This document shows, piece by piece, positions 2,654 to 56,706 of a stretch of DNA of 64,000 nt. This DNA is from Candidatus Ryanbacteria bacterium RIFCSPHIGHO2_02_FULL_45_17b. GTDB taxonomy: Bacteria; Patescibacteriota; Minisyncoccia; Ryanbacterales; 2-02-FULL-48-12. The position numbers and the translations under genes are program-made. Location of the stretch: positions 147,016 to 211,015 of the forward strand of contig MHNO01000009.1 of NCBI GenBank assembly GCA_001819815.1, read 5' to 3'. Position 1 is the first letter of the stretch; every line of letters begins with the position of its first letter. The notes under the pieces are model-generated. The model saw only the letters and a list, made by a program, of their open reading frames with translations. It was not told the origin of the DNA and did not search any database.

Positions 2654-2811
2654 GCTAGGATATACATGAAAACCACATTTTTTTCCTTGTTTTAGGTGTG
2701 GTTGCCGGGGAGCGAAGATTAACCCCTCCTCGCTCCCCTTTCTCCCTTTTGCCCAAGGTCTCACAGGAGGCCTTTTTTCTTTGGAAACGTACGGTGTTTA
2801 TATTCAGATAC

Positions 2812-2994
2812 CATGAATTACGAAACACACCCTCATCTGATGACCGCCACATGAATTGATAATGAGTTGAACAAGATGTGTAACGTCTTGCGATGACCCA
2901 ATTTGGTCATCGCAAGACGTTATATTGTGCTTGCGTATGCAAATCGATGGGAGGTCATCAGATGAGAGGAATACATGTGTTTCGTAATTTAAAG
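2812..2994 (+). mobile_element. MITE copy 1 (183 bp), imperfect TIRs and internal 15-bp perfect hairpin; flanked by 8-bp TSD tcagatac (2804-2811 and 2995-3002)
   Basis: Same element recurs at 27911-28052 and 56481-56642. Termini catgaattacgaaacac...gtgtttcgtaatttaaag; internal cgtcttgcgatgacc-caatttg-ggtcatcgcaagacg. The direct repeat flanking the copy was read directly. Confidence 0.7.
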
Positions 2995-3714
2995 TCAGAT
3001 ACTAACGAAGTACATACGCACGTCGCTCATTTCATGAAAAATACGGGCGGGAGTTTCAGCAAGCGAGCCTTCCACCAAAAGAACTTTTTCAAGCGCAGAT
3101 TTCTTTTCTTCTCCAACCGCATACACCACGGCGTGATCCACTTGTGTGCGCAAAAAAGGCATCGTAACGGTAACACGGAACGGATATGGATTTTTAGTAC
3201 CCGCGTCATATGCCGCCACCCATTTTGTTTTATCTTCAAATAATTTCTGAAACAAAACAGGGTTTTCCGGAAACGGCATGATACCTGCCGTATGGCCATC
3301 CGCCCCCACGCCCATGGTTGCAATTATAACGCCATCCACATGCGCCTCCGCCCACTCATGAAGCGCTTTTTCAAAACGATCCGCCAATAAAGCCTGTGTT
3401 TCAGCTGCACCCGCGCGCGTATCTATAAACGAAACGCCAACCGCGTACGCATTCGCGTAAAATTTGGTTCCCGTAAGCTGAAAAGAATTATTATCTGCTT
3501 CATCCTGACTAAAACGCTCATCAAGCACGCCAATAGTCACCTGTTCCCCCAGCGCGTCTTTCGGTATTGCATCCAGCAATGAAAAAGCCGACCCGCCGGA
3601 AAGAAGCAAAAGTACGGATTGTGTATGCTCTTTTGCATCCATCAAAAGAGCGCGCAGTAACTCTCCCGCGCGCGCTTGCGTTTCCTGTGTGCTTTTGCAT
3701 TGAGTTATTTTCAT
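2995..3714 (-). CDS. pgl: 6-phosphogluconolactonase / glucosamine-6-phosphate isomerase family protein
   Basis: GVGADGHTAG motif and NagB/Pgl-fold similarity. The track start at 3735 is TTG; the ATG at 3714 (MKITQCKS...) with an upstream AAGAGAAA is preferred. The stop codon lies inside the TSD of MITE copy 1. Confidence 0.55.
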   Translation of the reverse strand: MKITQCKSTQETQARAGELLRALLMDAKEHTQSVLLLLSGGSAFSLLDAIPKDALGEQVTIGVLDERFSQDEADNNSFQLTGTKFYANAYAVGVSFIDTRAGAAETQALLADRFEKALHEWAEAHVDGVIIATMGVGADGHTAGIMPFPENPVLFQKLFEDKTKWVAAYDAGTKNPYPFRVTVTMPFLRTQVDHAVVYAVGEEKKSALEKVLLVEGSLAETPARIFHEMSDVRMYFVSI

Positions 3715-6747: not shown

Positions 6748-6948
6748 TTAGGCACGGCTTACGTTTGTCGCTTGTGGACCCTTCATTCCCTGCCCCTCTT
6801 CAAACGTTACCTTGTCACCTTCCCGAAGGTCGTTGAAAGCTACGTTTTGAAGTTCGCTAGAATGAAAGAAGAGATCCTTGGACTGGCCTTCTCGGCGAAT
6901 AAAGCCGTAGCCTTTGTCCATAAGCCGCGCAATTGTTCCTTCTTGCAT
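6748..6948 (-). CDS. Cold-shock protein (CspA family)
   Basis: 66 aa; GTIARLMDKGYGFI...KDLFFH RNP motifs. Confidence 0.85.
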   Translation of the reverse strand: MQEGTIARLMDKGYGFIRREGQSKDLFFHSSELQNVAFNDLREGDKVTFEEGQGMKGPQATNVSRA

Positions 6949-11396: not shown

Positions 11397-11600
11397 CTAG
11401 GCAATCTTGCTGACCTTAACCGCGTTCGGTCCTTTCGGACTGTCGGCGACTTCAAAGGTCACCCGATCACCTTCGCGAAGCTCATCAAAGGTTACACCTT
11501 CGAGCTCGTTAGAGTGGAAAAAGAGATCTTTTTCCTGACCCTCACGTTTGATGAACCCGAAACCCTTGTCGGTGAGACGGGCAATTGTTCCTTCTTCCAT
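11397..11600 (-). CDS. Cold-shock protein (CspA family), second paralog
   Basis: 67 aa, GTIARLTDKGFGFI...KDLFFH. Confidence 0.85.
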   Translation of the reverse strand: MEEGTIARLTDKGFGFIKREGQEKDLFFHSNELEGVTFDELREGDRVTFEVADSPKGPNAVKVSKIA

Positions 11601-21732: not shown

Positions 21733-21803
21733 CTGCCAGACTAGGATTCGAACCTAGATACCCGCCTCCAAAGGGCGGTGTCCTACCATTAGACGATCTG
21801 GCA
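21733..21803 (-). tRNA. tRNA-Gln (anticodon UUG)
   Basis: Cloverleaf read by hand on the minus strand: acceptor TGCCAGA/TCTGGCA, D-arm GTCT/GGAC, anticodon stem CCGCC/GGCGG with loop CUUUGGA, T-arm CTAGG-TTCGAAT-CCTAG, discriminator G, no encoded CCA. Confidence 0.7.
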
Positions 21804-21817
21804 ATAGATTTTATAGA

Positions 21818-22168
21818 TTACTCCTCTGTAAGTAATGATATAAGTTGCTCTATAACTTCTTCCAAAATATTCTGTGGAACCTTTTCTATATATACAGCTT
21901 TCCGTGTTTGCCAATCTGCAATACGTACTTGATCTACAAGAATAACTCCTCCTATCTTTTTCCCTTGCGCCCCTAACAAAACTTCAAATGGATACCCTTT
22001 TACATGCGACGTTACAGGACATATAAGCGCGAGCTTCATCCGGCCATTGTACGATTTTGGAGACAATACTAAAGACGGCCGGCGTCCCGCTTGCTCATGC
22101 CCTCGGTGTGGATCAAGAGTAACCCATATTATATCTCCTCTTGCAGGTATATAGGATTGCTTTACCAT
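21818..22168 (-). CDS. mazF: Type II toxin, PemK/MazF family
   Basis: GDIIWVTLDPHRGHEQAGRRPSLVLSP and CPVTSH blocks. Confidence 0.75.
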   Translation of the reverse strand: MVKQSYIPARGDIIWVTLDPHRGHEQAGRRPSLVLSPKSYNGRMKLALICPVTSHVKGYPFEVLLGAQGKKIGGVILVDQVRIADWQTRKAVYIEKVPQNILEEVIEQLISLLTEE

Positions 22169-22413
22169 ATTTCCCGCCCAACAGGACCCACCCAACCTTT
22201 CCACGCATCTCCATGTTTGTTTTCGTCCGTAATTTTAGCAACTCGTTCTTTTAAAGTAATCTTTTTCTTAGCTTTGATGGGTCGAATGGATATCTGTTCA
22301 TCTTGAACGAATACTTGAACATCACTCCCTTCGTGCAAGCTCAACTCTTCCGAAACATGTTTCGGAATGTGCACCCCTAAACTATTGCCCCACATTTTTA
22401 TTTTTGTAGTCAT
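22162..22413 (-). CDS. mazE: Type II antitoxin, MazE/AbrB-fold
   Basis: MTTKIKMWGNSLGVHIPK swapped-hairpin motif; 7-bp overlap with mazF. Confidence 0.7.
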   Translation of the reverse strand: MTTKIKMWGNSLGVHIPKHVSEELSLHEGSDVQVFVQDEQISIRPIKAKKKITLKERVAKITDENKHGDAWKGWVGPVGREIW

Positions 22414-24182: not shown

Positions 24183-24370
24183 GTGTTTAAAAAACAATAA
24201 AATACATTTTTGCACAGATGCTTCGAAATTTAAAATTGTAAGAGTTTTGAAAAAAAATCGTAAACTCCTTCCTCTGGTCGTCAAACATACGATTTTTTGA
24301 CAAACCTCTAACAATTTTTAAAAATTTCTCCACAAAAGTGCAAAAATGTATTTTATTGTTTTTTAAACAC
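24183..24370. repeat. 33-bp perfect inverted repeat (24183-24215 / 24338-24370) enclosing a 122-nt AT-rich spacer with nested hairpins
   Basis: gtgtttaaaaaacaataaaatacatttttgcac ... gtgcaaaaatgtattttattgttttttaaacac. Sits between two convergent genes; the right arm overlaps the GtrA stop region. Confidence 0.6.
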
Positions 24371-27863: not shown

Positions 27864-27910
27864 GGTTTTAGTATAGCAAGATAGAAAATAAAAAGCGATT
27901 ACTGTATATA

Positions 27911-28052
27911 CCGTGAATTATGGAACACACCCTCATCCGATGACCGCCACGCGAATTGATAATGAGTTGAACAAGACGTTATATTGTACTTGCATATGCA
28001 AATCGATGGGAGGTCATCAGATGAGAGGAATACATGTGTTTCGTAATTTAAA
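27911..28052 (+). mobile_element. MITE copy 2 (142 bp; internal hairpin module deleted; degraded TSD gtatatac/tatatag)
   Basis: High identity to copies 1 and 3 across both termini and the gatgggaggtcatcagatgagaggaatacatgtgtttcgtaatttaaag end. Confidence 0.65.
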
Positions 28053-28101
28053 GTATATAGGTATATGTACGCATACTATATACGCATGATACAATGGTCA
28101 T

Positions 28102-29869: not shown

Positions 29870-29960
29870 CCACTTTATTTGTAAGAAAATTGTTCTACGA
29901 TGGCCTCTATTTGCTTATACCTGTCGGCCATAAAGAACAATTTTCTTACAAATAAAGTGG
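29870..29960. repeat. 27-bp perfect inverted repeat (29870-29896 / 29934-29960) with a 37-nt loop, between the tandem glycosyltransferase genes
   Basis: ccactttatttgtaagaaaattgttct ... agaacaattttcttacaaataaagtgg; loop carries a nested atggcc/ggccat stem. Confidence 0.6.
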
Positions 29961-33510: not shown

Positions 33511-34665
33511 TCATATAATTATGCGCGGTATTAATGGATTAATGCACGTGGTGATTTCATAATTGATCGTACTAATGCGACTTGCCAATTCTTCAGCGCT
33601 GATACATTCCCTGCCTTGCCGTCCTAAAAGCACCACTTCATCTCCGGGCTTCACGCCACGGAGCTTTGTGATATCAAGCATACAGATATTCATACAAATA
33701 TTGCCCACTATGGGTACACGCCTTCCGCCGACCAACACCGCGCCATTATTTGAAAATCCGCGGTCAAACCCGTCCCAATACCCGATGGGAATAACGGCGA
33801 TCTTCATCTCCTTCTGTGCTTTATAGGTGCGGTCATACCCAATAGTTTTTCCGGCCGGAATGGTTTTTACTTGAGCCACACGCGTCTTCCAGGTAAGAGC
33901 AGGTTTGAGTGCTACTTGCTTTTTTACTTTATCAGCTACTTCGGGAGATGGGTACATACCATAGAGCGCAATGCCCAAGCGTGCCATAGTAAAATGCGCC
34001 TCTGGATACAATAACAAAGCTGCGCTCGCGGCGGTGTGCAGATATTGCGGACGTACACCTTCCTCCTCAAAAATCTTGATCGCATTCTGGAAGGCCAAAA
34101 GCTGTTCTTTGTAGTAACGTGACTTTGGGTTTTCTGTATCGGCAAAATGTGTATAGGCTCCTTGGACTATTACCTGCGGCGCAGATTTTTTAAGCGCCCG
34201 AGCAAACGCACTCACATCTTCGGGCATCACACCCTGCCGATGAGTGCCTGTTTCGAGCTTAACGTGCACAAAAACTTTTTTACGCATTTTTTTCGCAAGG
34301 CGCGTAAGCTCTTTGAGCATTGGAATATCATACAAGCACACGCGAAAATTATTCCTGACTACATCCACCAGCATAGCAGATGGCACATAGCCGAGGATGA
34401 GAATTGGATTTTTTATGCCAGATTTTTTGAGTATGAGAGCTTCGTCAATTGAATCCACCCCAAACCAGACAATCGGAGGTTTCGCCTCCGAATAATATTC
34501 GGAGGCGAAACCTCCGATTGTCTTGATAACTTTGACAATACCATGACCATAGGCGTTGGATTTTACTATTGCCATTACAGCGACACCTTTGCCAAGATGT
34601 TTCGTGAGCGCCAAAAAATTATGCCGCAACGAGACGGCATCTACCTCAACCCAGGTTTTATACAT
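33511..34665 (-). CDS. alr: Alanine racemase
   Basis: PLP-lysine motif AIVKSNAYGHG. Confidence 0.8.
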   Translation of the reverse strand: MYKTWVEVDAVSLRHNFLALTKHLGKGVAVMAIVKSNAYGHGIVKVIKTIGGFASEYYSEAKPPIVWFGVDSIDEALILKKSGIKNPILILGYVPSAMLVDVVRNNFRVCLYDIPMLKELTRLAKKMRKKVFVHVKLETGTHRQGVMPEDVSAFARALKKSAPQVIVQGAYTHFADTENPKSRYYKEQLLAFQNAIKIFEEEGVRPQYLHTAASAALLLYPEAHFTMARLGIALYGMYPSPEVADKVKKQVALKPALTWKTRVAQVKTIPAGKTIGYDRTYKAQKEMKIAVIPIGYWDGFDRGFSNNGAVLVGGRRVPIVGNICMNICMLDITKLRGVKPGDEVVLLGRQGRECISAEELASRISTINYEITTCINPLIPRIII

Positions 34666-42416: not shown

Positions 42417-42503
42417 AACCATCAAAAATGTGCTTAGAAAAAGTCTGGCCGAGCGATAGCGAAGGAGAGCCGAGGACTTTTTCTAAGCACATTTTTGATG
42501 GTT
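42417..42503. repeat. 29-bp perfect inverted repeat (42417-42445 / 42475-42503), 29-nt loop
   Basis: aaccatcaaaaatgtgcttagaaaaagtc ... gactttttctaagcacatttttgatggtt; between the aldolase-like gene stop and rplY start. Confidence 0.6.
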
Positions 42504-43463: not shown

Positions 43464-43559
43464 CTACCCCATTGCGTATACTAAACATGTTCTTTACGGC
43501 CAACAGGTGTATACATAGAAGGACGTCGTAGAACATGTTTAGTATACGCAATGGGGTAG
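43464..43559. repeat. 30-bp perfect inverted repeat (43464-43493 / 43530-43559), 36-nt loop
   Basis: ctaccccattgcgtatactaaacatgttct ... agaacatgtttagtatacgcaatggggtag; between glpX stop and the aldolase-like gene start. Confidence 0.6.
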
Positions 43560-47348: not shown

Positions 47349-47942
47349 CTAATCAATAAATTTGAACGTGGAGAGAAATTGTTTAAAATCTTTTTTGTTT
47401 TTGGTTGATGTCTTGTACAACGTAGTTAGCATGGCTGTCATTCCATCAGCATAATTCATTTGGGCTGTTACTGTGGTTGAATCTCCCCAATCAATCATCC
47501 AAGCCCCAGCCAACTCACATCTCATGTCTTGAGGGTAAGCTTCACAATAAGTTATACCAGCAAGCGTTAAATCTATAGTAGATATCACAATAATATCATC
47601 CCCACCCTCAATAAGATGAATAGGCCACTTCGACAAACTTATCGACCACGAAGATGGATACTTAAACTCAAACCCATACTCTTCATTGAGGTATGTTTTC
47701 CAGTCTGATGTGTCATCTTGTGTAATGCTTGGCTTTGCACATTCCTCAAACTCGCAATTTTGCCCCGTGCGCCCTACATACGAGCCATCAGGGCAGAGTT
47801 TTGCTTCCAGCGTGCACGAGATTCGAAAAGAGTGCTGTGCCTTGCGGGGAACGCCAAAATAACTTGCTACTGCAATAATGCTCACTGCCATAAGTAACAA
47901 AGCAACCGCGACAACATGGCTTAGTTTTTCTCGTGCAAACAT
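47349..47942 (-). CDS. Secreted hypothetical protein, paralog A of a three-member family (C-terminal STFKFID)
   Basis: N-terminus MFAREKLSHVVAVALLLMAV is identical to paralog B; shared W(K)TY(L/H)NEEYGFEF(K/R)YP block; ends FKFID. Confidence 0.55.
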   Translation of the reverse strand: MFAREKLSHVVAVALLLMAVSIIAVASYFGVPRKAQHSFRISCTLEAKLCPDGSYVGRTGQNCEFEECAKPSITQDDTSDWKTYLNEEYGFEFKYPSSWSISLSKWPIHLIEGGDDIIVISTIDLTLAGITYCEAYPQDMRCELAGAWMIDWGDSTTVTAQMNYADGMTAMLTTLYKTSTKNKKDFKQFLSTFKFID

Positions 47943-47965
47943 ATTTTTATGTAAAGTTAACTCGA

Positions 47966-48250
47966 TTATTGATTTTTATAAACTCGATCATGATGAGCAA
48001 AATCTATGAATCTAAGTTCACCATTATAAAACTCATAAACCAAAACAAAAGAACCGACATGTAATCGCCGTCGATTTTTAAGCGTGTAACGAAGAGGTTT
48101 TCCCAAAATTGGTTCGCGAATTATTTTCTCCATCTGGTTTGAAAGTTGTTCAAACAGATTATGATCTTTCTTTTTACATTTTCTCACCACTCGCTCAAAA
48201 TTAGGTGAGTAAACAATATGACTAACGTTGGGTGAACGAGAATCCTCCAT
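47966..48250 (-). CDS. Type II toxin, RelE/ParE family
   Basis: RRRLHVGSFVLVYEFYNGELRFIDFAHHDRVY matches the RelE/ParE C-terminal consensus. Start set at the internal ATG. Confidence 0.65.
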   Translation of the reverse strand: MEDSRSPNVSHIVYSPNFERVVRKCKKKDHNLFEQLSNQMEKIIREPILGKPLRYTLKNRRRLHVGSFVLVYEFYNGELRFIDFAHHDRVYKNQ

Positions 48251-48474
48251 CACAGATTCGTTAGCCACTTTTTCATCTCGGCAATAGATGTAAATGACCG
48301 CCCTTCTTTTTTGTCCAAATTATGGCTTACGCGCTCCCATTTTTTGAGTATATCTGAACGTATAAAACGCTCATCATCCATAAGAACGACTTTTTTCAAT
48401 AAATCCAGTTCCTTTTCTACTTTCTCCTGCCGGTGAAATAAACTATTCAACTGTTTTGATGTAACTATAGGCAT
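48250..48474 (-). CDS. Putative antitoxin partner of RelE/ParE
   Basis: 74-aa ORF immediately upstream and abutting the toxin; no independent motif. Confidence 0.45.
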   Translation of the reverse strand: MPIVTSKQLNSLFHRQEKVEKELDLLKKVVLMDDERFIRSDILKKWERVSHNLDKKEGRSFTSIAEMKKWLTNL

Positions 48475-48542
48475 ATATACATACTACTGTAAATATTGAT
48501 AAGACACCAGTATATCATTCATGACCATGCAAAATGAGAAAA

Positions 48543-49394
48543 TTAATCAATAAATTTAAAAGTGGAGAAAATGCTTTCGAGTAATGATTTATTTTCTTTG
48601 TTTCCAACAGTTTGAGTATGCAAGAATATTTGAAAATTGTCCTTGCATATTTCTTTTTCCTCAAACGTAGCCACGCCTGGCCCGTATGAATCTTGAATCC
48701 AGTTTGCGTTTATAGTCTTGGGATCGCAGCCTTTTTGTATTACTATAGTCATGCCTCCTGAAGGTTCTATGCCACCATGCCCCCATTGATCTTGAAAAAA
48801 ACTTTGGACTCCACTGTTGCCTATCTGCCATGTAGGAGGATATCTAAACTCAAACCCATACTCCTCATTATGGTAAGTTTTCCATGAGAGAGCGCTACTT
48901 TCTTTTGGATCATCCTCAATATATCTTGGCACTTGTAAAATACTATACGACTTTAATATTGCGCCGTCGCTCGCCAAACCCTCCGCACGATACCAATATG
49001 TTCTATCACCTATCACAGAATCAACAACCTGTTGAGGCATAGAATCAGTAACCGGCAATGAAAGCACTTTGAGCCATGGGCCATTTTTTAATTCCGATCG
49101 ATAAAACACTAGACTCTTGGCACGAGAAGGAAGATCAGCCCAGTATAAAATAATACTATCTCCCATGTTGAAAGCCAACAAATCTCTCTCAGCGTTTAAT
49201 ACCGTTTGATTGATCGCTTGCGGACTCGGACATTCCGTCAATGTACAATCGGGAACGAGGCGACCAACAGCGCTAGCAAAAGAATTTTCTTTTCGATCAA
49301 CAAGACCAAAATACTCCACAAACGTGATAACCTGCACGGCGACAAGTAACAAAGCAACCGCGACAACATGGCTTAGTTTTTCTCGTGCAAACAT
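48543..49394 (-). CDS. Secreted hypothetical protein, paralog B (C-terminal STFKFID)
   Basis: First ~50 nt identical to paralog A; WKTYHNEEYGFEFRYPPTW block; ends FKFID. Confidence 0.55.
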   Translation of the reverse strand: MFAREKLSHVVAVALLLVAVQVITFVEYFGLVDRKENSFASAVGRLVPDCTLTECPSPQAINQTVLNAERDLLAFNMGDSIILYWADLPSRAKSLVFYRSELKNGPWLKVLSLPVTDSMPQQVVDSVIGDRTYWYRAEGLASDGAILKSYSILQVPRYIEDDPKESSALSWKTYHNEEYGFEFRYPPTWQIGNSGVQSFFQDQWGHGGIEPSGGMTIVIQKGCDPKTINANWIQDSYGPGVATFEEKEICKDNFQIFLHTQTVGNKENKSLLESIFSTFKFID

Positions 49395-56326: not shown

Positions 56327-56480
56327 AAATTCTCCTTATTCTTATTTGGTTTTCAACGCAAAAGATACTAATCCCATGTGTAGCATTTTTCCTGTTATTT
56401 GTCAAATTTTTACACTGCACTCGTGGGCTACGTAATGATTTCTGAACTTTTGACCGAGTAGACACATATAGCTACTTTAC

Positions 56481-56642
56481 CATGAATTACGAAACACACC
56501 CTCATCCGATGAACGTCACGCGAATTAATAACGTCTTGCGATGACCCAATTTGGTCATCGCAAGACGTTATATTGTGCTTGCGTATGCAAATCGATGGGA
56601 GGTCATCAGATGAGAGGAATACATGTGTTTCGTAATTTAAAG
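56481..56642 (+). mobile_element. MITE copy 3 (162 bp) flanked by a perfect 8-bp TSD tactttac (56473-56480 and 56643-56650)
   Basis: Same termini and internal 15-bp hairpin as copy 1; lacks a 19-bp segment present in copy 1. Confidence 0.7.
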
Positions 56643-56706
56643 TACTTTACATTCTATCCTCTTATTTTATACTTACATCAGGTCTAAAATATAATTAACC
56701 AAACAT

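Follow-up and report, generated by a model that had tools for sequence, protein, structure and literature searches.

Probable miniature inverted-repeat transposable elements of an apparently undescribed family in a Parcubacteria-type bacterium from the Rifle aquifer

Introduction

Within a 64 kb stretch of DNA from Rifle aquifer groundwater (the whole of the stretch analyzed, hereafter the window), one short sequence with inverted ends stands at three separate places, each time between genes. What kind of element is it, and what carried it there? The answer to which we assign a probability of roughly 0.85 is a miniature inverted-repeat transposable element (MITE), a non-coding remnant of a cut-and-paste DNA transposon, present here in three copies. 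Elements of this kind are well known, while the family to which these copies belong and the superfamily surrounding it are apparently undescribed. Both the MITE assignment and its novelty had been proposed from a reading of the sequence alone (the sequence-only reading). The repeats are indeed non-coding, multi-copy and bounded by terminal inverted repeats and target duplications, and a literature search agrees on novelty, having returned no paper on MITEs in bacteria of the Candidate Phyla Radiation (CPR), nor any in which the end sequence figures in a relevant context.

The host is a Parcubacteria-type CPR bacterium, nearest to Candidatus Ryanbacteria and without a close sequenced relative. 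Exact matches to proteins of the window lie on contigs from Rifle groundwater, among them ENA k141_2978322 (146.7 kb), contigs of JGI samples 3300025323 and 3300002502, and the ANAN16 scaffolds. The GC content of the window, 44%, excludes as host the Rifle Peribacteria, whose five complete genomes have 58.5% (PMC4736985). The protein encoded by the window's pgl gene is present in identical form in JGI data only, and its best named homologue belongs to Candidatus Ryanbacteria bacterium RIFCSPHIGHO2_02_FULL (GCA_001819785.1), with 67% identity, followed among named matches by proteins of Parcubacteria and Uhrbacteria. The gene order pgl-sufBDSU is conserved between the window and the same Ryanbacteria genome.

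CPR genomes are about 1 Mb in size and are usually described as streamlined, and few mobile elements have been described in them. Three MITE copies in 64 kb, together with dozens of sites in one aquifer community, signify recent transposition in such genomes.

Three copies of one element in the window

The three copies all lie on the + strand and align end to end. Copy 1 (2811-2994, 184 bp) is a full-length form with a central hairpin, copy 2 (27911-28053, 143 bp) is a deletion form devoid of that hairpin, and copy 3 (56480-56642, 163 bp) is missing a 21-nt segment to the left of it. A hidden Markov model (HMM) built from the 23 family copies described below matches these three places only within the 64 kb, with E values of 1.9e-46, 3.7e-44 and 1.5e-39, respectively, and the window has exactly three occurrences of the 21-nt right terminus, where 0 are expected. 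The places are those picked out by the sequence-only reading, with starts now set at 2811, 27911 and 56480, and copies 2 and 3 do lie between divergent open reading frames (ORFs), as it had remarked. The copies have no coding capacity; the sole ORF touching copy 1 (2893-3243, + strand) enters pgl antisense and is taken as spurious. Among loci and contigs outside the window, which carry L-numbered labels, the subfamily of copy 2 recurs at L012 and the form of copy 3 at L034 and L038.

The architecture is best followed in copy 1. Its left inverted end (2811-2845, + strand) is composed of the 18-nt repeat CCATGAATTACGAAACAC, a 3-nt spacer and the block CTCATCTGATGACC, which holds the palindrome TCATC-N-GATGA. 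In the predicted fold this end pairs with the right inverted end (2953-2994, + strand), which consists of GGTCATCAGATGAG, a 10-nt spacer and GTGTTTCGTAATTTAAAG. Between the two ends stands the central perfect hairpin (2881-2922, + strand), whose 18-nt arms (2881-2898 and 2905-2922) enclose the 6-nt loop caattt. This hairpin had been recognized earlier, but with 15-nt arms and in a string that counts one g twice. Copy 2 is without it, and in some family members its loop is longer.

The differences in length between the copies have a simple signature. The hairpin deletion of copy 2 sits between two CAAGA pentamers and the 21-nt deletion of copy 3 between two TAA triplets. Indels flanked by short direct repeats in this way point to slippage deletions and not to exchangeable modules. 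The modular indels described by the sequence-only reading are real, the gap in copy 3 measuring 21 nt rather than 19.

Element ends and target-site duplication

Further copies came from a scan of JGI metagenome contigs with a pattern comprising both element ends. The scan returned 31 loci, from which overlaps were then removed. The resulting 23 distinct full copies, the window's three counted, constitute the set used for the family alignment, the HMM and RNAalifold. Their ends are symmetric, 5'-C(C/T)NTGAATTACGAAACAC...GTGTTTCGTAATTNANNG-3', and either terminus of the family copies, read inward, is C(C/T)NT(G/A)AATTACGAAACAC. What had been described as imperfect terminal inverted repeats (TIRs) of about 30 bp are real inverted ends that resolve into an 18-nt perfect terminal repeat and a 14-nt subterminal CTCATCNGATGACC block, both kept in the 23 copies, the two being 3 nt apart in the left end and 10 nt apart in the right. 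The TCATC-N-GATGA palindrome is present at both ends, and its GATGACC half recurs inside the central hairpin.

Perfect 7-bp target-site duplications (TSDs) flank 12 of the 23 distinct full copies, compared with 0 of 506 mismatched left/right flank pairs. In the window, copy 1 is flanked by tcagata at 2804-2810 and 2995-3001, and copy 3 by tacttta at 56473-56479 and 56643-56649. The right duplication of copy 1 includes the pgl stop codon, a TGA that is the reverse complement of 2995-2997, which is where the sequence-only reading had placed it. Copy 2 has a 6-bp direct repeat, tatata, at 27905-27910 and 28054-28059, one base short and in a TA-repeat context; described earlier as a decayed flank, it is counted here as a 6-bp duplication.

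The 8-mers previously taken as duplications can be read in the sequence as quoted (tcagatac at 2804-2811 and again at 2995-3002; tactttac at 56473-56480 and again at 56643-56650), but the TSD is 7 bp. The last base of each left 8-mer is the first base of the element, which therefore starts one base earlier, and the C formerly given to the left flank is assigned to position 1 of the element because the additional copies make the ends symmetric. A mismatch-free 7-bp register fits all 12 duplicated copies, whereas an 8-bp register fits only seven and requires a mismatch at position 8 in the other five, although the other 84 duplicated bases are all intact. The base after the right duplication is C in 7 of the 12 copies, which explains the earlier 8-mers and may itself reflect a target preference. 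The duplicated heptamers (n = 12) follow the AT-rich and loosely palindromic consensus TANNWTA, with T in 10/12, A in 8/12, any base at the third and fourth positions, W in 11/12, T in 10/12 and A in 11/12. With a duplication of 7 bp across the 23 copies and of 5-8 bp superfamily-wide, the list of insertion sequence (IS) families once drawn up from an 8-bp duplication (IS256, ISL3, IS6, IS1595 and IS66) loses its footing.

These features suggest a model for the movement of the element. A transposase supplied in trans would bind the 16-18 nt terminal repeat, with the subterminal TCATC-N-GATGA palindrome probably serving as a second binding site, and insertion would proceed by joining the ends to a target whose strands are cut 7 nt apart (8 nt apart in some sister families). 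The enzyme is most likely a DDE transposase. Length subfamilies arose through microhomology-bounded deletions, and truncated and fossil copies are products of decay.

The family in the Rifle data

The search for further copies that the sequence-only reading had recommended was fruitful in one respect: in metagenome data from Rifle the family is inserted at about 29 sites, all at unrelated loci, and no autonomous partner with matching ends was found among them. Besides the 23 full copies, these sites include a copy whose right end is truncated (L016/L036), an end lying at a contig edge (L021), truncated copies at three places (L028, L041 and L019:3206-3230) and, at L031:6637-6790, a fossil devoid of terminal repeats. 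Lengths range from 143 to 214 bp and fall into classes of 143, 151, 153, 161-163, 177, 184-186, 193 and 214 bp. A strict family pattern, consisting of the terminal repeat and CTCATCNGATGA, found 0 matches in GTDB species genomes and 0 in IMG/VR, which indicates that the family does not extend beyond a few organisms at Rifle, with GC contents of 43-47%.

In contigs of the host population, the element is present at all three window sites in every case. Seven of nine same-species contigs that reach the pgl site terminate inside the element, and such termination is the usual mark of a dispersed repeat in short-read assemblies. Promoter scans in and around the three window copies gave matches at chance level. 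As no effect on neighbor genes was detected, the insertions may be near neutral.

Two relatives that share the gene order around pgl have no copy in the pgl-sufB spacer. In the Ryanbacteria genome GCA_001819785.1 and in one Logan contig, the spacer is 206 bp long and element-free; its two halves align to the window spacer to either side of the element, whose own place is empty. The window spacer measures about 431 bp to the homology-supported start of sufB, of which the element and one duplication make up 191 bp. This comparison is supportive, but it does not amount to a clean empty site because at this evolutionary distance the heptamer is no longer recognizable. A second pair, L031 and L032 (85% identical), was compared for an empty site, and its spacer is too diverged to read.

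The sufB start used in this measurement is an ATG at 2563 (MIPDD...; 462 aa), identified by homology to relatives of 462-463 aa; the longest sufB ORF (GTG at 2764, 529 aa) is probably over-extended.

A wider superfamily sharing the end

The terminal 16-18 nt (CTTTGAATTACGAAAC) are found well beyond the family. They also bound elements of 78-388 bp, with duplications of 5-8 bp, in many other genomes, mostly labeled Patescibacteria. A scan of 185,579 species genomes (596 Gb), in which the terminal 18-mer CTKTGAATTACGAAACAC alone was the query, returned 56 loci, where random sequence with equal base frequencies would give about 35. Of the 56, at least 25 are labeled Saccharibacteria, Magasanikbacteria, Parcubacteria, Patescibacteria, Liptonbacteria, Yanofskybacteria or Doudnabacteria, and CPR groups account, by our own estimate, for only a few per cent of the scanned bases. 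A partner repeat lies 78-388 bp away in 26 loci. Perfect direct repeats of 6-8 bp flank ten of these 26 (four of 7 bp, four of 8 bp and two of 6 bp), compared with 3 of 650 in the null. Overall, superfamily duplications span 5-8 bp and are mainly 7 or 8. The right ends, which the scan did not select, yield the consensus CTTTGAATTACGAAAC with agreement in 21-26 of 26 loci at each position, followed by an A/T-rich spacer and then often by GTCATYC. The 16-nt end is thus near-invariant across Saccharibacteria, Magasanikbacteria, Parcubacteria, Doudnabacteria and others, and the interiors are unrelated between genomes.

Not every match belongs to this group. About 16 of the 56 look like chance; four matches share one homologous stretch of Bacteroidales/Prevotella, and another two come from Methanothrix. 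A degenerate form of the 18-mer gave seven single matches in IMG/VR, all without a partner repeat and taken as chance. Some carriers are labeled Gammaproteobacteria, Bdellovibrionales or Bellilinea, and one such metagenome-assembled genome (MAG) is probably not CPR because it encodes carbamoyl-phosphate synthase, GatB and MetK.

The window family belongs to an apparently undescribed orphan MITE superfamily found mainly in Patescibacteria. The shared 16-nt end offers a simple search key for this superfamily across the phylum, and naming the enzyme that acts on it could provide a genetic tool for a group that is poor in them.

Three contigs of the Saccharibacteria MAG SRP124282_co8_23 (L108, L117 and L119) stop 37-93 nt inside near-identical copies of a superfamily end; they represent a multi-copy element whose interior is unassembled. 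In Magasanikbacteria (L107:6026-6552), a 100-aa HTH_17/MerR-like ORF opens 30 nt into a superfamily end, and the contig breaks off 527 nt in; this locus could be the edge of a longer element with superfamily ends.

Transposon, RNA or artefact

Several observations weigh against reading the repeats as MITEs. Eleven of the 23 copies lack a perfect 7-bp duplication: in copy 2, L030 and L035 the repeat measures 6 bp or is off by one, another copy matches at 6 of 7 positions, L011, L018, L023 and L037 have no duplication, and the remaining imperfect copies have none or a degraded one. No precise empty site was recovered from a close relative (>90% DNA identity); the comparison at pgl crosses genera, with pgl proteins 67% identical, and the target heptamer is not conserved. 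An autonomous element with these ends was found neither in the window and related loci nor in the stored JGI contigs, the 596 Gb of species genomes or IMG/VR. Finally, base pairs 19/177 and 20/168 (2 of 41) and the center of the palindrome (T/A, C/G and C/A between arms) change on both arms together.

This last point belongs to the alternative that survives best, namely that the repeat is a structured non-coding RNA gene or a cis-regulatory RNA (a terminator, attenuator or small RNA) that was kept for its hairpin and duplicated. We consider it improbable. Copy 1 is predicted to fold into a single long hairpin on either strand, and the fold is very stable on both (-92.1 kcal/mol, z = -12.6 on the + strand; -85.5 kcal/mol, z = -14.0 on the - strand). 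On the + strand the central hairpin and its T-rich tail resemble a terminator; in copy 1, however, that strand is antisense to both neighbor genes, and the hairpin module is dispensable, as copy 2 and L012 demonstrate. Every copy examined (24/24) lies between ORFs, frequently 0-8 bp from a stop codon, a position that would suit an RNA element. Yet in tandem gene contexts seven copies are in sense and eight in antisense orientation relative to the flanking genes, a lack of bias unlike what a polar RNA element should show.

On the - strand, the N of both TCATC-N-GATGA blocks always forms an A-U, G-C or G-U pair, which favors an RNA, but across the 23 copies the RNAalifold covariation term is a mere -0.38 kcal/mol and both-side changes occur in 3 of 41 pairs. 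The both-arm changes follow subfamily lines and may reflect weak structural selection. A covariance-model match to a known RNA family, named by the sequence-only reading as one result that would speak against a MITE, was looked for in Rfam and none reached the gathering score; the best was StyR-3 (23.8 bits versus 59), and sub-threshold matches were generic hairpins only. Moreover, 7-bp duplications, truncated copies and unrelated insertion sites are all unexpected for an RNA gene family.

A less probable alternative still is a palindrome of the repetitive extragenic palindrome (REP) or bacterial interspersed mosaic element (BIME) type, spread by a REP-associated tyrosine transposase (RAYT; IS200-like Y1) encoded once per genome. 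Such systems do occur in the group, since a RAYT-like gene with its own REPs is present at L103, and the lack of a repeat-flanked transposase would suit a single-copy housekeeping enzyme. REP elements, however, are palindromes of about 20-40 nt without terminal inverted repeats or target duplications, whereas the elements described here have 18-nt terminal repeats and 7-8 bp duplications. In addition, the REP that flanks the L103 gene is unrelated in sequence, and no Y1 transposase was found in the window, Y1_Tnp having no match there.

That the repeats and odd junctions are assembly artefacts, chimeric or collapsed, is scarcely credible: contigs often stop inside the element and several join flanks of different sites (L060, L063, L065 and L068), but the same copies, flanks and duplications recur in independent assemblies, assemblers and samples (ENA MEGAHIT, ANAN16 scaffolds and JGI), the copies differ from one another by substitutions and indels, and related elements are found in many unrelated genome projects.

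Mosaic junctions between copies

The junctions that join different flanks are of interest in themselves. In L065 and L068, the left flank of copy 2 is joined through the element to the right flank of copy 3; L063 combines the left flank of L012 with the right flank of copy 3, and L060 the left flank of copy 2 with the right flank of L018. L016 and L036 have one flank in common only. These joins recur across several samples and assemblers, and the copies involved are identical over only 54-82 bp, which falls short of the final k of 141 in some of these assemblies. They could be real recombinants or assembler chimeras. MITE copies may act as recombination substrates, and since copies 2 and 3 have the same orientation, as direct repeats, an exchange between them would remove 28.6 kb; recombination, if real, would also account for copies without duplications. 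Such repeats cause contig breaks, and possibly chimeric joins, in CPR metagenome assemblies.

The search for the transposase

The sequence-only reading had found no transposase in the window. Pfam matches for the window ORFs of 120 aa or more (n = 58), partly on record for called genes and partly computed here, include no transposase or integrase family (seven ORFs scanned here have no Pfam match), and PHROGs yielded no transposase in the window among the matches listed. The flanks on ENA contig k141_2978322, followed for about 6 kb leftward and about 7 kb rightward from the window edges, contain neither a transposase nor an extra copy. Among 124 ORFs near other family copies, PHROGs gave two tyrosine-integrase-like proteins only among the matches listed, a weak negative. 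Matching ends 0.7-3 kb apart around a transposase ORF occur in none of the scanned collections. As no autonomous element with these ends was found in them, mobilization in trans is a proposal only.

Three candidates were considered as parents and rejected. At L093, an ORF of the IS30 type (HTH_38) begins 148 nt within a matching terminal repeat; its sole database relatives carry Pfam HTH_38. The IS30-like element has an inverted repeat of its own, TTTTGAAATGCAAC (L130), which differs from CTTTGAATTACGAAAC, and the usual duplication of IS30 elements is 2-3 bp. At L127:3405-3525, an intact MITE of the L093 type indicates that the L093 IS30-like element inserted into the right end of a MITE. The second candidate, an IS4-like DDE_Tnp_1 element in L127, has unrelated ends (CCATCTTTCACC), and the third, the RAYT of L103, is set aside on the grounds of its flanking REP. 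A large serine recombinase also recurs in three superfamily loci, but such an enzyme is not expected to give 7-8 bp duplications.

IS30-like elements with TTTTGAAATGCAAC are present elsewhere in Patescibacteria (L093:4019-4261, L127:1-2060 and L128-L130), in the same genomes or samples as the MITEs. One of them is cut by the IS4-like DDE_Tnp_1 element, and another, from Rifle samples, has the appearance of a pseudogene, its reading frame being broken into ORFs of 76, 144 and 110 aa. In L103 (Patescibacteria H52-bin132_1; oriented -110 to 960), the RAYT-like Y1 gene, with its YHIYNR motif, lies between REP palindromes AAGCTACATGCGATGTAGCTT. The arrangement resembles a REPtron in a CPR genome and adjoins two superfamily MITEs.

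How, then, would an orphan superfamily move? A tentative suggestion, which we hold to be the less probable case, is that a CPR-centered orphan superfamily is moved by a transposase not flanked by the ends, a single-copy enzyme resident in the host or domesticated, or is exchanged horizontally between these episymbiotic lineages. An enzyme of this sort would serve the MITEs as RAYT serves REPs, but with staggered cuts of 7-8 bp.

Comparison with known systems

The closest likeness is to the Correia elements of Neisseria (CREE/NEMIS). These are about 100-160 bp long, with terminal inverted repeats of about 26 nt, and are intergenic, with hairpins, internal-deletion variants and no identified cognate transposase. 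The elements described here share their small non-coding size, TIRs, copy number, hairpins, length variants and missing transposase. The two differ in that Correia elements duplicate TA rather than 7 bp, and there is no sequence similarity between them. Correia elements also have an IHF site and outward promoters and are limited to Neisseria. As their example illustrates, a missing autonomous partner is common among accepted MITE families.

RUP with IS630-Spn1, MIC231 with IS231 and Nezha with ISNpu3-like elements present the same combination of TIRs, target duplication, absence of an ORF and presumed mobilization in trans by a DDE enzyme. In these systems, an autonomous IS with matching ends exists, in contrast to the superfamily described here, for which none was found in the 596 Gb, the JGI contigs or IMG/VR.

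Duplications of 7-8 bp are made by the IS4/ISPepr1 group, the IS1595/IS1016 group, IS982, IS1 and IS256, and only in duplication length are these compatible with the present elements. A 5'-CT terminus is also found in IS4-family ends such as those of IS10 and IS50. Transposases of the IS4, IS1595, IS982, IS1 and IS256 families were not found linked to the ends.

Other features of the window and its flanks

The pgl-sufB spacer contains two hairpins of its own in the window at 2640-2800 (sense on the - strand), AAAAAAGGCCTCnTGTGAGACC and GGGGAGCGAGG...CCTCGCTCCCC, both conserved in the Ryanbacteria relative and the Logan contig. Positions 2755-2774 score as an intrinsic terminator on the + strand, and both neighbor genes are on the - strand. 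The hairpins could be a suf leader or an antisense feature. In a Candidatus Ryanbacteria relative (L042:4612-5995), a diversity-generating retroelement (bAvd and reverse transcriptase), absent from the window, lies between a thioredoxin-like gene and pgl.

Five long inverted repeats of unrelated sequence are found at 43464-43559, 42417-42503, 34467-34523, 29870-29960 and 24183-24370. The first four are perfect, with arms of 27-30 nt, and the fifth has 49-nt arms with 86% complementarity. They lie mostly between ORFs, although that at 34467-34523 overlaps the 5' end of a called alanine racemase ORF, and their stems far exceed those of ordinary terminators. A 151-nt direct repeat, 71% identical, at 6798-6948 and 11450-11600 adjoins two cold-shock-domain genes and is probably a shared csp leader. 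Two tandem PsbP_2-like paralogues at 47352-49394 contain common repeated DNA segments (families D4, D6 and D10).

A MazF/PemK toxin gene (21821-22204, - strand) adjoins the only tRNA gene of the window (21733-21803, - strand). To the right of the window, at a distance of 3-7 kb (L133:273-3628), a cluster of an EcoRI-like methylase, RhuM and GmrSD looks like a small defence island.

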